From a virus, in the UHGV virus genome UHGV-0058267: a stretch of 15,180 nucleotides of DNA, one strand, 5' to 3'. Under the pieces are notes generated by a model. It searched no databases. It worked only from the letters and a program-made list of their open reading frames with translations, and was not told where the DNA came from. Positions 5,463-14,170 of this stretch are shown here, one piece after another (the first letter of the stretch is position 1; every line of letters starts with the position of its first letter). The position numbers and the translations under genes are program-made.

Positions 5463-6020
5463 TCACATAAACATCTGGATTTGCTCGTTTTTTAGTTGGT
5501 TGATTTTTTCGCGCAATCTGATCTTTTCATCAGCTTTTTCCAAAGAGGCTGGTGACATGCAGTTAATCAAAGCGTCAAGGTGCTCTGGAGATTTGATAAT
5601 AAAGAACTTTTTGTATTTATTAACAAAAACGACAGAGCATTTTTTACGTTTAAGAAGCTCAATCACGTTACTCAGAGTACCCGTGCTCTTCGTATCCCAA
5701 ACCATTAATCCATAATCGGCTTCTTCTGCCATTTTGAGATCTTTCGCAGTGAAAAACGCGCGAGTGCCGGCTGCATGGCTAGTACTTACTACATGTACAG
5801 GCCATGAGCCAAGATTATTGCGCGGTTTTTCTGAGCTACTGAATACTGTGGCTTTTTCACATCCAAGTTCTAGCAATACGCGTTGAACAGATGAATCAAC
5901 ACCATTGGCATCACCAACTACAATACGAAAACGCGAGTTAACAATTTTTTTCAGACGATCCACGATGAGTGTGTCAAGGTTTTTGATGGTTATTGAACCA
6001 GCAACAAATACCGTAGTCAT
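5463..6020 (-). CDS. SLOG/DprA-like Rossmann-fold protein (about 185 aa), candidate nucleotide-binding or processing component
   Basis: Likely start is the ATG at 6018-6020 (MTTVFVAGS...) with GGAG 6 nt upstream. Motifs VFVAGS and GDANGVDSSVQRVLLELG recall the G-x-A-x-G-[IV]-D core of DprA/Smf/LOG-type domains. Starts 2 nt after the upstream gene's stop. Confidence 0.45.
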   Translation of the reverse strand: MTTVFVAGSITIKNLDTLIVDRLKKIVNSRFRIVVGDANGVDSSVQRVLLELGCEKATVFSSSEKPRNNLGSWPVHVVSTSHAAGTRAFFTAKDLKMAEEADYGLMVWDTKSTGTLSNVIELLKRKKCSVVFVNKYKKFFIIKSPEHLDALINCMSPASLEKADEKIRLREKINQLKNEQIQMFM

Positions 6021-6022
6021 CA

Positions 6023-6604
6023 CTATCTCCAAGTCAAAGCTGCAACATAAATGCTTCTAACCTTAGTATAATCGTTTAGCACAGCACAAGCAGCCTCCAT
6101 AGATGCGCCTGTATGGTAGAGGTCGTCAATGATAAGGACATTCCAGTTGCCATTATTCTCAATACTGTCATTAACAGAGAACGAATTACCCAGCGCCGTG
6201 ATTTTCTCTTCTTTTGTATTCAGGTTCTTTAGCGAAGCCCCGCCGGGGGCTTTCAACAAGAGGTCATCGAAGCATGGTTTGCCAACTAGTTTGGCTAGTT
6301 CCTGAGCTATTTCGGTCACTGGCTGGCGTGCACGCTGATTAGATGCAGCCATTGGAACGATAAACCCGACATTGCTGAAATGAGGAAAGGCATGCTCTGC
6401 TAGGCATTGGGCTAAAGGCTTAACTTGTGACCAATCGTCACGGTATTTAAGCTGGAAAAGAGATTCGCCTACCTCAGTACGCTCAGTCTCAAACCGCATA
6501 TGTCCCCACTCATCGTAACCAATGGGAATGCTGCGGATGCTGTGTTTATCCATCGCAAGACCTAATTCCCAATTTCCAACAATCTGTTTTATGTTGACTT
6601 TCAT
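6023..6604 (-). CDS. phosphoribosyltransferase (PRTase)-like protein (193 aa)
   Basis: VLIIDDLYHTGAS fits the type I PRTase PRPP-binding signature (four hydrophobic residues, two acidic, then T-G); first gene of a two-gene minus-strand operon. Confidence 0.55.
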   Translation of the reverse strand: MKVNIKQIVGNWELGLAMDKHSIRSIPIGYDEWGHMRFETERTEVGESLFQLKYRDDWSQVKPLAQCLAEHAFPHFSNVGFIVPMAASNQRARQPVTEIAQELAKLVGKPCFDDLLLKAPGGASLKNLNTKEEKITALGNSFSVNDSIENNGNWNVLIIDDLYHTGASMEAACAVLNDYTKVRSIYVAALTWR

Positions 6605-6951
6605 GGCTCACCGTTTGCTGTGTAAAACACCAAAGACTACCTCTTGTTATATTTGGTGAAAGCGAAAGTTTCATTTTTTGCAGTGGAGATCAAATGTTAC
6701 TCCGTGAACATTTTTAGCATGTGGCCTCGCTACACGGTTTGGCGTAACTACTGCATGTCTATACTGCATGAATCCGCATGATCGTTTAAGGATCGCTCTA
6801 GTTGGGGCCTGCTAGGTATGGCGGGCTTTTGCTTATGTCATGCAGGTGCATGAAAACCACTATATAAAGCGGGCAGGCGTGGCGGGGATACGATTGCGCT
6901 CGCATCCTTTTCGTATTAATCTGATATCAATTTAAAACGAAGAGTTCGCAA

Positions 6952-8055
6952 ATGAAAATTATTTCAATATTTAATAATAAAGGTGGTGTAGGAAAATCCA
7001 CTCTTGGATACCATACTGCGCATGCATTGGCAGAGAAAGGTATTAAAACTTTAATGATTGACCTTGATCCACAGTCGAATCTCACTTTACAGTGTATTTC
7101 TCCTGAGGAGTTAGAAAAGTTATGGCTAGAAGAAGAGCCATTTATTGAGGACTTCCAATCAGCTTTAGAGGAAAGTAAACTTTCGTATCAAGATTTTTTG
7201 AGTAAGCCGAGAAGCATTCATTGCTTATTAAAACCAATAGAAGATGGCGTCTACGAATCTTCTTCACTAAGTTCTGTTTATGAGCTTAATGATAAATTAG
7301 GTATTATTCCAGGTCGTTTAAGTTTGCATAAATATGAGGATAAAATCGCGAAGGGTTGGAGTGATGCCTTCATGGGAGAACCTCAAGCACTGCGACTTAT
7401 TACCAGTATTAGGAACTTATGTCTAGAAGCAGAGGAAAAATTTGGTTATGAAATGGTAATAATAGACACATCTCCTAGTCTCGGTATGCTTAACAGAGTT
7501 ATCATTTCTACATCAACCGGATTTTTTGTCCCATGCATGCCCGATATGTTCTCCACCTTTGGGATTACTAACATAGGAGAGTCATTAAAGAATTGGAAAA
7601 ATCAGTTCGATACCATGTATAAACTTTTGCCTGATAAAAAGAGAAATGTTTTCCCTAAAAACTTCGTTAAGTTTTTAGGTTATACTATTTATAACGCGAA
7701 GAAATATGAAGGCAGAAATGAACTTGATTTAGCGACCGCGCATTACTCATATGTTCAGAAAATTCCCAATGTGATCAAAAAACACATTCCTCAAGAATGT
7801 TATCAAGAGCAAGATCTTGCAGACATTTCACAACCAATTGGTGGAAAATCAGTTATTCACTCGCATAATACTCTTCCTTCTATGTCTCAAAAGTATAGGG
7901 TGCCCATATGGAAAGTTCCTTTCATCCAATCCATGAGCGCAGAAGACAGAGCCACTGTTTCAGGTAATAGACAGACTTTTCTTGACAAGCAGCAGGCATA
8001 TAGTGATTTTGCCGATTCTCTTTTGGCTCGTATTGATAAGATTGGAGAAGAATAG
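6952..8055 (+). CDS. ParA/MinD-family ATPase (367 aa)
   Basis: Deviant Walker A NNKGGVGKST near the N-terminus and Walker B-like MVIIDTSPS; strongly AT-rich coding sequence. Confidence 0.8.
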   Translation: MKIISIFNNKGGVGKSTLGYHTAHALAEKGIKTLMIDLDPQSNLTLQCISPEELEKLWLEEEPFIEDFQSALEESKLSYQDFLSKPRSIHCLLKPIEDGVYESSSLSSVYELNDKLGIIPGRLSLHKYEDKIAKGWSDAFMGEPQALRLITSIRNLCLEAEEKFGYEMVIIDTSPSLGMLNRVIISTSTGFFVPCMPDMFSTFGITNIGESLKNWKNQFDTMYKLLPDKKRNVFPKNFVKFLGYTIYNAKKYEGRNELDLATAHYSYVQKIPNVIKKHIPQECYQEQDLADISQPIGGKSVIHSHNTLPSMSQKYRVPIWKVPFIQSMSAEDRATVSGNRQTFLDKQQAYSDFADSLLARIDKIGEE

Positions 8056-8057
8056 TT

Positions 8058-8735
8058 ATGGCTCTTAAAGAAAAATATGCGGACATTTATAGGCGTCTTA
8101 AAGATGAGATCGATGCCTATGAATATTTCATGAAGAATATTAAAAATTTTTTCGAGTCAACTAAAGTAAAAGCTCATGTCCATTCACTTCGTTTTAGGTT
8201 GAAAGATATTGATCATCTTTTAGAGAAAATAGAAAGAAAAAACCATGAGGATGATCAGTTACCTGAAGCAGAGCGAAAAGGTCATATCACAGCTGAAAAT
8301 ATTTTTAACCGTATAACGGATATAGCTGGAATAAGAGTATTACACCTTCATTTAAGTCAAATGGAAGATATACATCGTGCAATTATGAGGGCAGTAGATG
8401 AAGGGGAGTATGCGCTTTTTGAAGAGCCAAAGGCATATACTTGGGATCCTGAGTCCAAAGTTTATTTTGAGAGTTTGGGTCTTAAGCCTCATGTAAAACA
8501 AAGTTTTTATACGAGCATTCATTATGTCCTGAAACCTAATAGAGAAGGGAGTGTTACTTGTTGTGAAGTTCAAGTCAGAACTCTTCTTGAGGAGGTTTGG
8601 GGGGAAATTGATCATACAATGAATTATCCTATCCAGCATGTCGATGAGAACTGCAAAGAACAGATAAAAATTCTTGCTAGACTGATTGGCGCTGGAAGTC
8701 ATTTAGCTGATTCAATTATGAAACGCTATCAATGA
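8058..8735 (+). CDS. RelA/SpoT-type nucleotidyltransferase (small alarmone synthetase / toxSAS-like, 225 aa)
   Basis: Synthetase-domain motifs in canonical order: R-x-K...K (RFRLKDIDHLLEK), D-x-x-G-x-R (DIAGIRV), Y-x-S-x-H (YTSIHYV), E-x-Q-x-R-T...W...H (EVQVRTLLEEVWGEIDH). Start is 2 nt after the ParA-like stop with GGAGAA upstream. Confidence 0.7.
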   Translation: MALKEKYADIYRRLKDEIDAYEYFMKNIKNFFESTKVKAHVHSLRFRLKDIDHLLEKIERKNHEDDQLPEAERKGHITAENIFNRITDIAGIRVLHLHLSQMEDIHRAIMRAVDEGEYALFEEPKAYTWDPESKVYFESLGLKPHVKQSFYTSIHYVLKPNREGSVTCCEVQVRTLLEEVWGEIDHTMNYPIQHVDENCKEQIKILARLIGAGSHLADSIMKRYQ

Positions 8736-8740
8736 AGAAC

Positions 8741-8761
8741 AGGCAGGAATCATACCTGCCT
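8741..8761 (+). terminator. hairpin between convergent genes, possible bidirectional terminator
   Basis: AGGCAGG (8741-8747), 7-nt loop, CCTGCCT (8755-8761), followed by a short T-containing tract; sits in the 31-bp gap between the RelA/SpoT-like stop and the portal-remnant stop. Confidence 0.3.
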
Positions 8762-8766
8762 TAATG

Positions 8767-9141
8767 TTAAATAAGTTTGTAGTCTTCAAAGTTTATTATC
8801 GGCTCATCTAACCATTTGTTAATCTCCTCAATTCTCTTTTGAAGAGGTTTAAGTTCGTTCCTAACAAAAACCATACTAGCCTTCTCCACATCCCCAAACC
8901 CCCCAACATTATTAGGCATAATCCCCATCATTTGCGGCGGCACGCGGTGCGCAGCCATCATGTCATCGCGGCTGACATTTTTGATATTCAGAAACTCATC
9001 CTTCGCCGCCACCTCTGACAACGGGATAATCTGAAGCCCGTCCTTTTTGCCGTTAGGCGAGTACATAAATAGGTTGCGGAAGTTACCCAGGGCGGCGGAG
9101 CGATGAGTTCTAACGGGATCGTGGTTGATGCGCATCAGCAT
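8767..9141 (-). pseudogene. Q: 3' remnant of a P2-family portal (gpQ-like) gene; 5' two-thirds missing
   Basis: 124-aa frame whose sequence (PNGKKDGLQIIPLSE...MGIMPNNVGGFGDVEKA) resembles the C-terminal region of P2-family portal proteins as recalled. Expected gene is about 340 codons; the frame ends about 40 bp from the divergent gpW start. Confidence 0.5.
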
Positions 9142-10437: not shown

Positions 10438-11035
10438 TCTGCTGCCACCGGGTTCAACACCACTGGAGCGCCGACTGGCACAAACCTGCAGCGGGATTTC
10501 TGATCTGCAGGTGCCGCTTCGTGACTTGTGGAATCCGGCAACCTGTCCGGTCAGTTTCCTGCCTTATCTCGCCTGGGCTTTCTCTGTGGATCGCTGGGAC
10601 GAGGGCTGGACAGAAAGCGTCAAACGCCAGGTGGTGAAGGATGCTTTTTATATTCATCAGCATAAAGGGACCACCAGTGCCGTGCGGCGGGTGGTGGAGC
10701 CGTTCGGATTCCTGATCCGCATTATTGAGTGGTGGCAGACCGGAGAAACACCGGGCACGTTTCGCCTGGATATTGGCGTGCAGGACCAGGGCATCACTGA
10801 AGATACCTATCTGGAACTTGAGCGGCTGATAAGCGATGCCAAACCATGCAGCCGTCACATGACTGGCATGTCCATCAATCTGCAGACCAGCGGTCCGCAT
10901 TGGGTAGGGGCTGCCAGCTATCTTGGCGAAGAAATCACGATCTATCCGTATATCAACGAAACGATTATTTCCGGTGGCACCGCGCATGAAGGCGGGGCGG
11001 TCCATGTTATTGACACAATGAGAGTGAATCCATGA
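10430..11035 (+). CDS. I: tail/baseplate protein gpI
   Basis: 201-aa ORF translationally coupled between J and H (overlap ATGAATAG at 10430-10437); conserved P2-family order. Confidence 0.7.
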   Translation: MNSLLPPGSTPLERRLAQTCSGISDLQVPLRDLWNPATCPVSFLPYLAWAFSVDRWDEGWTESVKRQVVKDAFYIHQHKGTTSAVRRVVEPFGFLIRIIEWWQTGETPGTFRLDIGVQDQGITEDTYLELERLISDAKPCSRHMTGMSINLQTSGPHWVGAASYLGEEITIYPYINETIISGGTAHEGGAVHVIDTMRVNP

Positions 11036-12774
11036 GCACAAAATTTTATACCCTGCTGACGGAGATTGGTGCGGCGAAGCTTGCCAGCGCCACTGCACTT
11101 GGTGTGCCGCTTAAAATTACCCATATGGCGGTGGGGGATGGCGGCGGAGCATTGCCGACGCCGGACGCAAAGCAGACTGCACTGGTAAATGAGAAACGCC
11201 GGGCTGCGCTGAATATGCTTTATATCGACCCGCAGAACAGCAGCCAGATTATTGCCGAACAGGTGATCCCTGAAAACGAGGGCGGTTGGTGGATACGTGA
11301 AGTGGGCCTGTTTGATGAGTCAGGGGCATTGATTGCCGTGGGCAACTGCCCGGAAAGCTATAAGCCGCAACTGGCTGAAGGCAGCGGGCGCACCCAGACC
11401 GTGCGTATAGTGCTGATAACCAGCTGCACGGACAATATCACCCTGAAAATCGATCCTGCCGTCGTGCTGGCAACCCGCAAGTATGTGGATGACAAGGCAC
11501 TGGAGCTGAAGGTGTATGTGGATGATCTGATGGCAAAACACCTTGCCGCACCAGATCCGCATTCACAGTACGCGCCAAAAGCCAGCCCGACATTTACCGG
11601 AACCCCCAAAGCGCCAACGCCAGCGGCAGGGAATAATACCACGCAGGTTGCGACCACCGCGTTTGTACAGGCGGCACTGACGGCTCTTATTAATGGTGCG
11701 CCAGCCACGCTGGACACACTGAAAGAAATAGCCGCAGCCATTAACAATGACCCGAAATTCAGCACCACCATTAACAATGCGCTGGCACTGAAAGCGCCGC
11801 TGTCGAGTCCGGCACTTACCGGAACGCCAACAGCACCTACTGCGGCACAGTCGGTCAACAATACACAGATTGCCACCACGGCTTTTGTGAAATCGGCGAT
11901 TGCAGCAATGGTGGGTTCTGCACCTGCGGCACTGGATACACTGAACGAACTGGCGGCGGCGCTGGGGAATGACCCGAACTTTGCCACGACAATGCTTAAT
12001 GCACTGGCAGGTAAACAACCGCTGGACAATACGCTGACTAATTTGAGTGGAAAGGATGTAGCTGGTCTTCTCACATACCTTGGTTTGGGAGAAGCCAGAT
12101 TCTCTGGTCGTTTGTTAAACACGAATATTTTTAAAAGCTCTGGAAAATATATCCCAACACCAGGGACAAAAAAGATAAGGGTCATTGCCTCTGGTGGCGG
12201 TGGCGGCGGCGGTGGGGTTCCTGAAACAACAGAAAATCAGCAGGCAACAGCCGGAGCTGGATTGAGCGGCGCATTTATTGAAGCATTTTTCGAGGTTGAT
12301 AATGATTTCGAAGTCAACGTTATTATCGGTGCTGCAGGTAAAGGGGGGGGAGCCGGAGGAAATTCAGGTAGTGAAGGTGGCACAACTTATTTCGGTTCCA
12401 TGATAACTGCACCAGGTGGTACAGGCGGTGGCGCGGGGGGAGCATCTGCAAACACATCATATATTCAGGGTATTTCATGGGGTGCCAGTCCGACATCGTC
12501 CGGTACAGTACTAAGAGCATTTCGCTGTAGTGCAAAAACACCAGGAGCAATGGTTATCTCTGTTAAAGCTGTAGCAGGTGGTACCGGGGGGGATACACCA
12601 TTAGGTTCAGGCGGTATAGGTGGTGCAAGTTCTTCATCATTCAGCGGACGTGGTGGTGGTAAAGCTGAGGGCTTTGGTGCTGGCGGAGGCGGAGCCTGCG
12701 CACCTGCTGGAAGTGAGGCTCAATCGGGAGGTGACGGTGCCCCGGGAATAGTTATTGTTGAGGAGTATGCCTGA
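11032..12774 (+). CDS. H: tail fibre protein gpH: constant N-terminal part plus currently expressed glycine-rich variable C-terminal part
   Basis: 580 aa; N-terminus MSTKFYTLLTEIGAAKLASA resembles P2 gpH as recalled; the left inversion site lies in-frame at 12068-12093; C-terminal about 227 aa are Gly-rich and lower in GC. Confidence 0.8.
   Translation: MSTKFYTLLTEIGAAKLASATALGVPLKITHMAVGDGGGALPTPDAKQTALVNEKRRAALNMLYIDPQNSSQIIAEQVIPENEGGWWIREVGLFDESGALIAVGNCPESYKPQLAEGSGRTQTVRIVLITSCTDNITLKIDPAVVLATRKYVDDKALELKVYVDDLMAKHLAAPDPHSQYAPKASPTFTGTPKAPTPAAGNNTTQVATTAFVQAALTALINGAPATLDTLKEIAAAINNDPKFSTTINNALALKAPLSSPALTGTPTAPTAAQSVNNTQIATTAFVKSAIAAMVGSAPAALDTLNELAAALGNDPNFATTMLNALAGKQPLDNTLTNLSGKDVAGLLTYLGLGEARFSGRLLNTNIFKSSGKYIPTPGTKKIRVIASGGGGGGGGVPETTENQQATAGAGLSGAFIEAFFEVDNDFEVNVIIGAAGKGGGAGGNSGSEGGTTYFGSMITAPGGTGGGAGGASANTSYIQGISWGASPTSSGTVLRAFRCSAKTPGAMVISVKAVAGGTGGDTPLGSGGIGGASSSSFSGRGGGKAEGFGAGGGGACAPAGSEAQSGGDGAPGIVIVEEYA
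12068..12093. repeat. left 26-bp invertase crossover site (gix/hix-like)
   Basis: ttctcacatacc-tt-ggtttgggagaa: two 12-bp half-sites around a 2-bp core, fitting the TTnTCnnAAACC half-site pattern of Gin/Hin/Cin/Pin sites as recalled. Inverted copy at 13523-13548, with a 21-bp perfect inverted match (12080-12100 versus 13516-13536). Confidence 0.6.
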
Positions 12775-13040
12775 TGAGTAATTTTGCTCTGATTGAACAT
12801 GGCGTGGTGAAAAATATTATTATCTGGGATGGAGAGGGTGATTTATTCTCTAATTGCGAAATTATAAATATTGATCATATAGATGCAGGCGTCGGTTGGT
12901 TCTATTCTGACGGAGAGTTTATAGCACCACCGGAACCGGAAATGACTGAATATGATGTTGGTAACATCGACGCGGTGATGGAAGCAGATACCAGCACCGC
13001 GCCGGGGGTTATCTGGCCAGTTCCACCTGAGATGGTTTAA
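12774..13040 (+). CDS. small protein coupled to gpH, putative tail-fibre assembly/chaperone protein for the expressed fibre variant
   Basis: Start overlaps the gpH stop (TGATG at 12772-12776) with GAGGAG upstream; 88 aa; function inferred from position only. Confidence 0.4.
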   Translation: MSNFALIEHGVVKNIIIWDGEGDLFSNCEIINIDHIDAGVGWFYSDGEFIAPPEPEMTEYDVGNIDAVMEADTSTAPGVIWPVPPEMV

Positions 13041-13269
13041 TCTCAATCAGAATGGGTTCGCCATTCTCGTTAACAGATATTTCCATTCCTTCAGGGATTT
13101 CAGATGCAGTAAAAAACCAGTTATCTTCTGGTAATTCCACAGCCCCGGTCACGTCATGAAGACCGGGGATTACTTCAGTCAAAGTAACAGGATTAAACAG
13201 GCGCACAATAAACTCTCCAGGAAAAAGCACTTGTTGATGGTCTTCCGTCGTACATCTGGCAGCGGACAT
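13009..13269 (-). CDS. small protein, putative tail-fibre assembly/chaperone protein of the silent cassette
   Basis: Minus-strand ORF converging on 12774-13040 (about 30-nt overlap at the 3' ends). Start codon uncertain (ATG at 13269, GTG at 13230, or the tracked start at 13296); overlaps the end of the silent fibre cassette. Confidence 0.3.
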   Translation of the reverse strand: MSAARCTTEDHQQVLFPGEFIVRLFNPVTLTEVIPGLHDVTGAVELPEDNWFFTASEIPEGMEISVNENGEPILIEIKPSQVELAR

Positions 13270-13534
13270 AAAAACCTGTATTACTGACCTGGTCATCCAC
13301 GATCATTGAAACGTGAACGTTATTAGGTGTGGCCTCGTAATCTGTTCTTATTCTTTCCGCTATGCTGATAAAACGTGAAAGCTTAGGTAGTGCAATTGGA
13401 TAAACGACTTTAGCCAGCCCATTATCATTGGAACCACCAGTTCCAAATACTTCTATTGCACCATCTGACCAGCGTATCCATGCACCATTGACATTAGCTC
13501 CTCGCTGAATGACATATCTGGCTTCTCCCAAACC
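13193..13534 (-). CDS. silent alternative tail-fibre C-terminal cassette, promoterless and start-less in this orientation
   Basis: The minus-strand frame reads ...GLGEAR-YVIQRGANVNG... through the right crossover site, and the same GLGEAR junction is encoded in gpH at the left site (LTYLGLGEAR). Inversion would fuse about 110 alternative codons onto the gpH constant part. Confidence 0.55.
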   Translation of the reverse strand, partial: GLGEARYVIQRGANVNGAWIRWSDGAIEVFGTGGSNDNGLAKVVYPIALPKLSRFISIAERIRTDYEATPNNVHVSMIVDDQVSNTGFYVRCQMYDGRPSTSAFSWRVYCAPV

Positions 13535-13548
13535 AACGTTTAAGAAAA
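13523..13548. repeat. right 26-bp invertase crossover site (gix/hix-like)
   Basis: ttctcccaaacc-aa-cgtttaagaaaa; inverted relative to 12068-12093; about 55 bp upstream of the invertase start. Confidence 0.6.
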
Positions 13549-13603
13549 TGCAGAGATTACGGCTAACTGGCATCATCTCCGGTTTTTATTCAGGGGGATG
13601 ATC

Positions 13604-14170
13604 ATGCTTATTGGCTATGTACGCGTGTCAACAAATGACCAGAACACCGATTTGCAACGTAATGCACTGAACTGCGCGGGATGTGAGCGGATTTTTGAGG
13701 ACAAAATCAGTGGCACTAAGTCCGACAGACCGGGGCTGAAAAAACTGCTCAGGACACTATCGGCAGGAGACACGCTGGTTGTCTGGAAGCTGGACCGGTT
13801 GGGGCGCAGTATGCGGCATCTTGTTACGCTGATAGAAGAGTTGCGCCAGCGTGGCGTGAATTTCCGAAGCCTGACTGACAGTATTGATACCAGTACCCCA
13901 ATGGGCCGTTTCTTTTTTCATGTCATGGGTGCCCTGGCTGAAATGGAACGCGAACTGATAGTTGAACGTACCAGGGCAGGGCTGGCTGCAGCTCGTGTTA
14001 AAGGCAGAGTAGGTGGACGCCGTCCTAAGTTGACCAGCGAACAGTGGGCACAGATTGGGCGTTTACTCGAGGCCGGAGAATCAAGACAGCGTATTGCACT
14101 GATTTTTGATGTAGGCGTTTCTACCATTTATCGAAAATTTCTGGCAAATAAGAGCAATGAATCTCCCTGA
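13604..14170 (+). CDS. serine-recombinase DNA invertase of the Gin/Hin/Cin/Pin family
   Basis: MLIGYVRVSTNDQNTDLQRNAL... is near-identical in its N-terminus to Mu Gin as recalled, with the catalytic Ser in RVSTNDQ and a C-terminal helix-turn-helix region; about 189 aa. Confidence 0.9.
   Translation: MLIGYVRVSTNDQNTDLQRNALNCAGCERIFEDKISGTKSDRPGLKKLLRTLSAGDTLVVWKLDRLGRSMRHLVTLIEELRQRGVNFRSLTDSIDTSTPMGRFFFHVMGALAEMERELIVERTRAGLAAARVKGRVGGRRPKLTSEQWAQIGRLLEAGESRQRIALIFDVGVSTIYRKFLANKSNESP

Follow-up and report, generated by a model that had tools for sequence, protein, structure and literature searches.

A gene pair encoding a ParA-like ATPase and a small alarmone synthetase in the cargo hotspot of a P2-like Escherichia coli prophage

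The gene pair

The DNA analysed here, referred to as the window, is a stretch of 15,180 nucleotides from the UHGV virus genome UHGV-0058267 and belongs to a P2-like prophage carried by Escherichia coli. Strain CFSAN061762 (NZ_CP042901.1) has a sequence 100% identical to positions 6700-8800. The window carries two adjacent genes, encoding a ParA-like ATPase and a small alarmone synthetase (SAS), which together are the subject of this study. The two genes and the features directly associated with them are:

6952-8055, plus strand: ATPase of the ParA/Soj fold with a deviant Walker A motif, 367 aa (open reading frame (ORF) list, Pfam, alignment, AlphaFold (AF2) model)
8058-8735, plus strand: single-domain SAS with the RelA/SpoT synthetase fold, 225 aa (ORF list, Pfam, alignment, AF2 model)
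8044-8060, plus strand: coupling junction, comprising the Shine-Dalgarno-like GGAGAAGAA, the ATPase TAG (8053-8055), TT and the SAS ATG (8058-8060) (read from the sequence)
6895-6951, plus strand: short leader from the cos-like site to the ATPase start codon (sequence)
8741-8761, no strand assigned: G+C-rich hairpin lying where the SAS and portal genes converge (terminator-like match, minus strand)

The order at the junction of the two genes is GGAGAAGAA-TAG-TT-ATG, with a spacer of 2 nt, and a Shine-Dalgarno-like GGAG lies within the 3' end of the ATPase gene, 10-13 nt 5' of the SAS ATG. The short spacer and the position of the GGAG make translational coupling plausible, as had been claimed in an earlier note on this DNA made from its letters alone. 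The same note had remarked on a very low G+C content. It is 0.35-0.37 over the pair (7001-8500), as compared with 0.53-0.59 in the flanking phage structural genes. A sigma-70 consensus scan of the plus strand of the leader (6895-6951) gave no match, and neither an Rfam match in the leader nor an RNA element in the cassette was found. Likewise, the cassette contains no repeat array that might serve as a centromere. The hairpin downstream of the SAS gene may act as a terminator for both directions.

The ParA-like ATPase

The assignment of the upstream gene product to the deviant-Walker-A ATPases, made in the earlier note, was borne out by Pfam searches with the 367-aa protein, which returned AAA_31 (E=6.5e-28) and CbiA (E=7.7e-13). 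In an alignment of 32 homologues the Walker A residues K10-G-G-V-G-K15 and T17, the D37/D39 motif and the Walker B residue D172 are invariant. The signature lysine is K10, and S16 varies between S and T. Furthermore, the family has specific inserts at approximately residues 45-110 and 250-300, which contain invariant residues, and a conserved C-terminal helix. ParA/MinD proteins alternate between a monomeric state and a sandwich dimer with bound ATP, and as a class they are noted for placing cargo on the nucleoid or the membrane.

A Foldseek search with an AF2 model of the ATPase (pLDDT 87) gave 3pg5 (DIP2308) as the best match (3e-13), followed by Soj, ParA, pSM19035 delta, pNOB8 ParA and McdA. 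The ATPase thus has the fold of ParA and Soj, together with their signature lysine and catalytic aspartates. The best match, 3pg5, is an uncharacterised structural-genomics protein from Corynebacterium diphtheriae. It shares the family-specific inserts of the ATPase and is of similar length, and its sequence matches the ATPase at E=2e-32, a match restricted to the N-terminal 200 residues. DIP2308 thus represents a sister family of the ATPase and is no orthologue of it.

In Soj of Bacillus subtilis, R189 is presumably the arginine responsible for non-specific DNA binding. In a profile alignment to 4pfs, which makes the mapping indirect, this arginine falls on a histidine of the ATPase, within the motif MHSHNTL. 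DNA binding by the ATPase can therefore not be assumed.

The small alarmone synthetase

The downstream gene had been described as carrying the full set of RelA/SpoT synthetase motifs, and this agrees with both the Pfam match of the 225-aa protein to RelA_SpoT (E=9.6e-17) and an alignment of 33 homologues. Invariant in the alignment are R47-x-K49, K57/R60/K61, D88-x-x-G91-x-R93, Y151-x-S-x-H155 and E170-x-Q172-x-R174-T175. The SAS is predicted to be an active pyrophosphokinase.

The AF2 model of the SAS (pLDDT 85) shows a single domain ending in two helices, and its confidence drops to 48-55 over the last ~15 residues. This C-terminal tail, G213...M221-[KR]-R-Y, is almost invariant in sequence and modelled with low confidence, a pattern that would be typical of a partner-binding tail. 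In a Foldseek search with the model, RelP and RelQ scored best (~1e-9), and CapRel (7ztb) was found at 1e-6 with an rmsd of 3.7 Å. Although RelP and RelQ score best, CapRel superposes on the SAS at a lower rmsd than either of them. Sequence and fold were considered as a means of calling the substrate, but the RelP/RelQ scores set against the CapRel rmsd are not decisive. The acceptor may be guanine nucleotides, adenine nucleotides or tRNA; nucleotides are slightly favoured, since RelP and RelQ are the closest relatives.

Pairing, distribution and selection

The SAS family has 1682 members at E<=1e-5 in a 90%-clustered collection, and 163 clusters at 50% identity were found at E<=1e-30 among 1.84 billion representatives. 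A genome scan using one genome per species yielded 50 loci, 46 of them with a full-length SAS; the remaining four are fragments or a distant long RSH. A ParA-like ORF is located directly upstream and on the same strand in all 46 loci with a full-length SAS. These represent Gamma-, Beta- and Alphaproteobacteria, Poribacteria, Lachnospiraceae, Bacteroidetes, Nitrospira, Acidobacteria, Marinimicrobia, Hydrogenedentota and Mycobacterium, and the pair as a whole is spread over at least ten bacterial phyla. In IMG/VR, nine viral contigs carry the SAS, and the ATPase is present in each of the eight that include upstream sequence. Inspection of six further contexts (Burkholderia, a Desulfotignum-related metagenomic contig, Aeromonas, Methylomicrobium, Neisseria and metagenomic loci) revealed a ParA-like gene encoding 363-373 aa immediately 5' of the SAS gene in each intact locus. 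The pair was absent from sequenced phage isolates, where only distant single matches were found, and relatives of the SAS are nearly absent from plasmids (5 of 72,556 records).

In 42 related loci the spacing of the ATPase and SAS genes mostly ranges from -4 to +5 nt. Furthermore, the pairwise identities of the ATPase and the SAS in loci consisting of these two genes are correlated with r=0.95. The pair is an obligate unit, and the pairing goes far beyond chance. Comparison with a 95%-identical copy gave a dN/dS of 0.023 for the ATPase gene and 0.040 for the SAS gene. These low values and the invariant catalytic residues show that both genes are functional and under strong purifying selection.

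In three genomes the ParA-like gene is disrupted beside an intact SAS gene. In Desulfotignum phosphitoxidans (locus L007, 3144-5024) a 1.88-kb insertion with a 7-bp target-site duplication interrupts it at approximately codon 43. Within the insertion, the strand opposite to the ParA-like gene has two unannotated ORFs of 193 and 133 aa, and the SAS downstream of the insertion is identical to that of uninterrupted relatives. The other two cases are split ParA genes in Pantoea and Xanthomonas (L038 and L058). The three loci suggest that the SAS is tolerated without a working ATPase.

A three-gene clade and fused forms

A second clade (L042-L063 and L078; e.g. L045:6330-6935) encodes an ATPase of ~335 aa and a SAS of ~245 aa, and always has a third gene, here called X, directly upstream of the ATPase gene. 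It occurs in Nitrospira, Bacteroidetes, Acidobacteria, Mycobacterium, Bradyrhizobium and others. According to an alignment, protein X (~190 aa) consists of a short helical region at the N-terminus, a linker rich in Ser, Thr and Pro, a conserved domain of ~100 residues and a tail rich in lysine and arginine. The conserved domain looks like a winged helix, and protein X could be a DNA-binding adaptor or regulator. Searches in Pfam, NCBIfam and the PDB returned no match to protein X, and PADLOC gave a chance-level match to Cas5f (E=0.004). We also compared protein X with the longer ATPase of the two-gene clade, and found no homology to any part of it.

Two proteins (P0305, 619 aa; P0344, 813 aa) combine a SAS from the same clade with long stretches of TPR repeats. 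These fusions represent an effector-plus-sensor arrangement, and suggest that the SAS has been reused as an effector with different sensor modules.

Location in the prophage and neighbouring genes

The gene order in complete genomes carrying the pair is replication gene A, a small ORF, a DinI-like gene, (cos), the pair and portal gene Q. The pair is thus located in the A-Q hotspot of a P2-like prophage, between the DinI-like gene with cos and gene Q, which agrees with the hotspot location put forward earlier. It has been shown that this hotspot is rich in anti-phage systems (Rousset et al. 2022, PMC9122126). The pair is listed as system #110 in the hotspot catalogue of that study (Table S5B, PMC9122126), and the designation of the system as undescribed in the earlier note has to be qualified to that extent. 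A full-text literature search found no study on a pair of ParA and SAS, the catalogue row in Table S5B being its sole trace.

Two other entries of Table S5B concern related proteins, namely #128, a single-gene RelA_SpoT protein of 340 aa with 20 occurrences, and #129, a ParA-like ATPase (WP_063123439) followed by a DUF5855 protein, with 19 occurrences (PMC9122126). We considered whether #129 represents the same ATPase with a swapped partner. This was rejected; the identical sequence shown is probably the representative of a loose cluster, and the loci with this arrangement in Table S5A list a different ATPase, WP_063123439. DNA resembling WP_063123439 was not found in complete E. coli genomes, nor was DUF5855 found in phage records.

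The pair is present in 7 of 5426 complete E. coli genomes, and is the sole cargo of the hotspot in six of these seven. The window has a second cassette beside the pair, at 5463-6604 on the minus strand. It consists of two overlapping genes that form a candidate defence pair resembling ShosTA/PsyrTA, and is present in CFSAN061762 and absent from the other six complete genomes with the pair. The features of this region are:

6023-6604, minus strand: ComF-type phosphoribosyltransferase (PADLOC ShosT 1.3e-8, PsyrT 1.5e-7)
5463-6032, minus strand: 189-aa protein, overlapping the phosphoribosyltransferase gene (faint PsyrA match, E=0.012)
6876-6894, between the two cassettes: cos-like site GGCGTGGCGGGGATACGAT (3 mismatches to the 186-type end, chance expectation 0.01)

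The reference for the cos-like site was what we take to be the cohesive end sequence of the phage 186 type. Approximately 150 bp around the site are conserved in >1100 E. coli genomes. Since it lies between the two cassettes, these would be placed at opposite ends of the packaged DNA, with the pair between cos and the portal gene.

Of the portal gene in the window (8767-9141) only the C-terminal 124 codons remain, fused to the baseplate V/W region. The junction, at ~9082-9088, runs through ~7 bp present on both sides. Compared with NZ_CP042901, ~9 kb comprising the portal N-terminus and the terminase, capsid, lysis and tail genes are missing. The window therefore stems from a defective prophage that kept its cargo. 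Two other decaying prophages (L011 and L012) also contain an intact pair.

In another P2-like phage (L075, 6886-10232), a 48%-identical version of the pair occupies the same A-Q hotspot. Its neighbour there encodes a 411-aa protein resembling DUF3644/restriction endonucleases, which matches the PADLOC defence candidate PDC-S19 at 3.6e-72. Other copies adjoin a P4-type integrase (L072), AbiGi and MazE-PIN (L006), a resolvase (L003) or a primase island (L009). Among 130 flanking genes we found five integrases and strong defence hidden Markov model (HMM) matches to HmaA, a type IV restriction enzyme, Ppl, BrxH and DrmA.

Further downstream in the window, 11032-12774 encodes a tail fibre whose C-terminal part is glycine-rich, followed by small ORFs on both strands. 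A serine DNA invertase gene at 13598-14170, the N-terminal sequence of whose product we take by eye to be Hin/Gin-like, ends this segment. The region 11032-14170 has the appearance of an invertible segment for host range, as is usual in such phages.

Comparison with known systems

An HMM search for defence systems, suggested in the earlier note, found no model that covers the pair. PADLOC-DB 2.0 returned no full-length match; the best were PDC-M28B (2e-7, over 36 P-loop residues only) and PDC-S33 (3e-5, covering the catalytic core of the SAS). All matches in NCBIfam 20 were far below the curated cut-offs, and Pfam returned generic domains only. Identity with a known defence system represented by a PADLOC, NCBIfam or Pfam system model is thus rejected.

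Three kinds of control are known among the conflict systems based on RelA/SpoT enzymes. In the toxSAS toxin-antitoxin systems it is exerted by small antitoxins or hydrolases (PMC7229694, PMC11782079). In CapRel a pseudo-zinc-finger domain serving as sensor and antitoxin is fused to the enzyme in the same polypeptide (PMC9712102). In PANGU type I the YejK-like nucleoid protein Pag1A activates Pag1B, an otherwise inert tetrameric GRel synthetase (bioRxiv 10.64898/2026.04.06.716658). None of them uses a ParA/MinD ATPase, and the earlier claim that such a partner departs from the known ones was upheld when the fused domain of CapRel and the YejK-like protein of PANGU were included in the comparison. 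The pair is not a member of the toxSAS, CapRel or PANGU families. With respect to the latter two this follows from the lack, in the SAS, of both the pseudo-zinc-finger and the acidic domain of Pag1B.

PANGU resembles the pair in being a two-gene operon that combines an alarmone synthetase effector with a larger partner that is not an antitoxin. Neither of the PANGU genes is toxic by itself, nor are both together, and activated Pag1B makes pppGpp and aborts infection (bioRxiv 10.64898/2026.04.06.716658). However, the partner in the pair analysed here is an ATPase of the ParA/MinD type (AAA_31/CbiA/ParA, Soj-like fold) and not a YejK-like protein, and the 225-aa SAS, a single domain, lacks the acidic domain at the C-terminus by which Pag1B binds its partner. 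A further difference is that the profile alignment, with its indirect mapping, gave no evidence of DNA binding by the ATPase. By analogy, PANGU offers the best working model for a partner that licenses the SAS, and the pair may work alike.

CapRel(SJ46) is a prophage-borne enzyme of the RelA/SpoT type that acts as an abortive-infection effector (PDB 7ztb), and the SAS model superposes on its catalytic domain. A sequence match between the SAS and CapRel was not found in a PDB search at E<=1. In contrast to CapRel, the SAS has no pseudo-zinc-finger sensor/antitoxin domain, and its control would therefore have to come in trans from the ATPase.

Like the pair, the toxSAS systems (FaRel, FaRel2, PhRel and PhRel2) are conserved overlapping bicistrons with a small RelA/SpoT synthetase at their centre, and the active site of this enzyme is intact in the SAS. 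The donor-site residues R64, K66, K74, R77, D90, Y128 and E145 of FaRel2 correspond to R47, K49, K57, R60, D88, Y151 and E170 of the SAS, and the invariant motifs of the SAS have counterparts among the acceptor-site residues of FaRel2 as well. The toxSAS partners are small structured antitoxins or hydrolases and not a 367-aa ATPase, and the SAS is apparently tolerated without its partner, as judged indirectly from the three genomes with a disrupted ParA gene. No small alarmone hydrolase or known antitoxin domain was found among the 130 flanking genes.

RelP and RelQ (PDB 6ewz and 5dec) are the closest solved structures by both sequence and fold, and like the SAS they are single domains with long N- and C-terminal helices. 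Their identity to the SAS is ~16-23%. Moreover, they are encoded by stand-alone genes in Firmicutes and are regulated by transcription and allostery, not by an ATPase partner. With ParABS systems the pair shares a deviant-Walker-A ATPase that has the signature lysine. It has no adjacent ParB gene or centromere repeats, and the gene downstream is the SAS, with no further ORF in the cassette. PARIS, from the P4 hotspot, is likewise a two-gene hotspot cargo made up of an ATPase gene and a toxic effector gene, and aborts infection when triggered by a phage anti-restriction protein (PMC9122126). Its AriA is an ATPase of the ABC/OLD type (AAA_15/AAA_21) and AriB a Toprim (DUF4435) nuclease (PMC9122126, PMC12409363), and neither has homology to the ATPase or the SAS.

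Possible function of the pair

The pair is best regarded as a conflict system that has a RelA/SpoT effector and an ATPase partner without precedent, functionally uncharacterised according to the searchable literature. We favour, with a probability of about 0.5, that it is a defence or conflict system of the abortive-infection type, in which the SAS is the effector and is controlled by the ATP-dependent dimer cycle of the ATPase.

The two genes would then act together as a single functional unit, which P2-like prophages and other small mobile islands carry as accessory cargo. As the effector, the SAS would transfer pyrophosphate from ATP to the 3' ribose position of an acceptor. This could be a purine nucleotide, in which case the product would be (p)ppGpp or (p)ppApp. 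It could also be the CCA end of tRNA, and either product would halt growth. The ATPase would be the controller, cycling between the ATP-bound sandwich dimer and the monomer. It would bind the SAS, perhaps through the invariant flexible C-terminal tail of the latter, and couple a change of cell state induced by infection to SAS activity. Candidate cues are a phage protein, a fall in the ATP level or the disappearance of the surface to which the ATPase binds. Arrest of the infected cell would then prevent the spread of the phage.

We infer the defence function from location and precedent, that is from the A-Q hotspot and from the known SAS effectors CapRel (PMC9712102) and PANGU. The physical complex, the direction of control, the substrate and the trigger are proposals. 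In support of a role in defence we also count the retention of the intact pair in decaying prophages (the window, L011 and L012), the integrases and defence genes next to several copies, the diverged version in the hotspot of a second P2-like phage and the TPR fusions of the SAS clade, as well as the obligate pairing, the co-divergence and the strong purifying selection.

The earlier note had suggested that the ATPase might restrain a toxic nucleotidyltransferase. This is not favoured here. It is more likely that the ATPase licenses or positions the SAS, or senses on its behalf, than that it neutralises a constitutive toxin, because three genomes keep the SAS beside a broken ATPase gene and because the catalytic residues of the ATPase are as strictly conserved as those of the SAS. 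The identity across phyla is 53-73% for both proteins. This very high conservation suggests that the input is a conserved feature of the host, such as DNA, nucleotide pools or other, and not a variable phage protein.

Several observations weigh against a defence role of this kind. The conservation just mentioned would be unusual for proteins that recognise fast-evolving phage proteins. The genomes with a disrupted ParA gene might not express the SAS owing to polar effects, and two of the three disruptions could be sequencing frameshifts. A model in which the ATPase surveys the nucleoid is speculative, since the Soj arginine aligns with a histidine. Most of the 130 flanking genes are housekeeping genes and many copies have no defence or mobile-element neighbour, so that the enrichment in defence islands is only partial. 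Finally, the protein sequences of the pair are absent from the tables of tested systems of Rousset et al. (S2A and S2B, PMC9122126).

Among the alternatives, a physiological signalling role survives best, although we consider it unlikely. The ATPase would place or time a (p)ppGpp-producing SAS in response to a cue from the cell state, such as the nucleotide pool or the status of the chromosome or envelope, thereby tuning the stringent response, persistence or, in the prophage, the balance between lysis and lysogeny. Consistent with this, many copies are single chromosomal insertions among housekeeping genes (Neisseria, Methylomicrobium, Halomonas, Poribacteria), the conservation is very high and purifying selection strong, the housekeeping enzymes RelP and RelQ are the closest solved structures, and the winged-helix-like protein of the three-gene class is a possible regulator. 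However, the pair is patchily spread, with the 7 of 5426 complete E. coli genomes as an example, and low in G+C. Two diverged versions reside in the P2 cargo hotspot and several copies have integrase or defence neighbours. Such patchiness, hotspot carriage and neighbours typify conflict systems that move horizontally and are not typical of core physiology.

Rather improbable is a classical toxin-antitoxin or addiction module, in which a constitutively toxic SAS is neutralised by the ATPase, through sequestration or control over its access to ATP, and which stabilises the prophage or island, any defence being a by-product of antitoxin loss. The overlapping bicistron does resemble the toxSAS operons (PMC7229694), the SAS active site is intact, and the pair travels on mobile elements and persists in decaying prophages, as addiction modules do. 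Yet the partner is no small labile antitoxin but a 367-aa ATPase with invariant catalytic residues, and among the neighbours no small alarmone hydrolase or domain of a known antitoxin was found. The dN/dS and the conservation across phyla are equally strong for both partners. Furthermore, the three genomes with a broken ParA gene and an intact SAS gene are the reverse of what addiction predicts.

That the ParA-like protein segregates or positions the element, or is a remnant of such a partition system, with the SAS as an unrelated passenger, is very improbable: the ParA/Soj fold, the intact ATPase motifs, the plasmid-type partition systems in ~1/4 of P2-like hotspots (Rousset et al., PMC9122126) and the small basic-tailed protein of the three-gene class as a possible centromere-binding partner are outweighed by the lack of a ParB-like gene and of a centromere-like repeat array in the E. 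coli locus, the near absence of SAS relatives from plasmids, the constant presence of the SAS beside the ATPase and the co-divergence of both proteins, and the apparent non-conservation of the canonical DNA-binding arginine, as mapped indirectly by profile.

A wider proposal can be made with less confidence. Possibly, a ParA/MinD ATPase has been recruited as the sensor or licensing switch of an alarmone synthetase effector, in a so far unrecognised family for surveillance of infection or of cell state that spans phyla and exists in two-gene and three-gene forms, the latter with X as a DNA-binding-like adaptor. The signal would then be no phage protein but an altered conserved feature of the host, sensed by way of the ATP-dependent dimer cycle.

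Significance

Small RelA/SpoT enzymes are emerging as effectors of toxin-antitoxin and anti-phage systems, and the way in which they are turned on and off is known for few types of partner. If the proposal is true, a ParA/MinD partner would represent a new control logic, in which an ATP-dependent dimer switch that normally serves spatial organisation is linked to growth arrest by alarmones or tRNA modification. The family is attractive for further work, as the pair is strictly conserved over many phyla, under strong purifying selection and small enough (~2 kb) for cloning. Its characterisation would fill one of the many untested entries in the catalogue of the P2 hotspot, and the orphan structure 3pg5 and related proteins would thereby gain a functional context.

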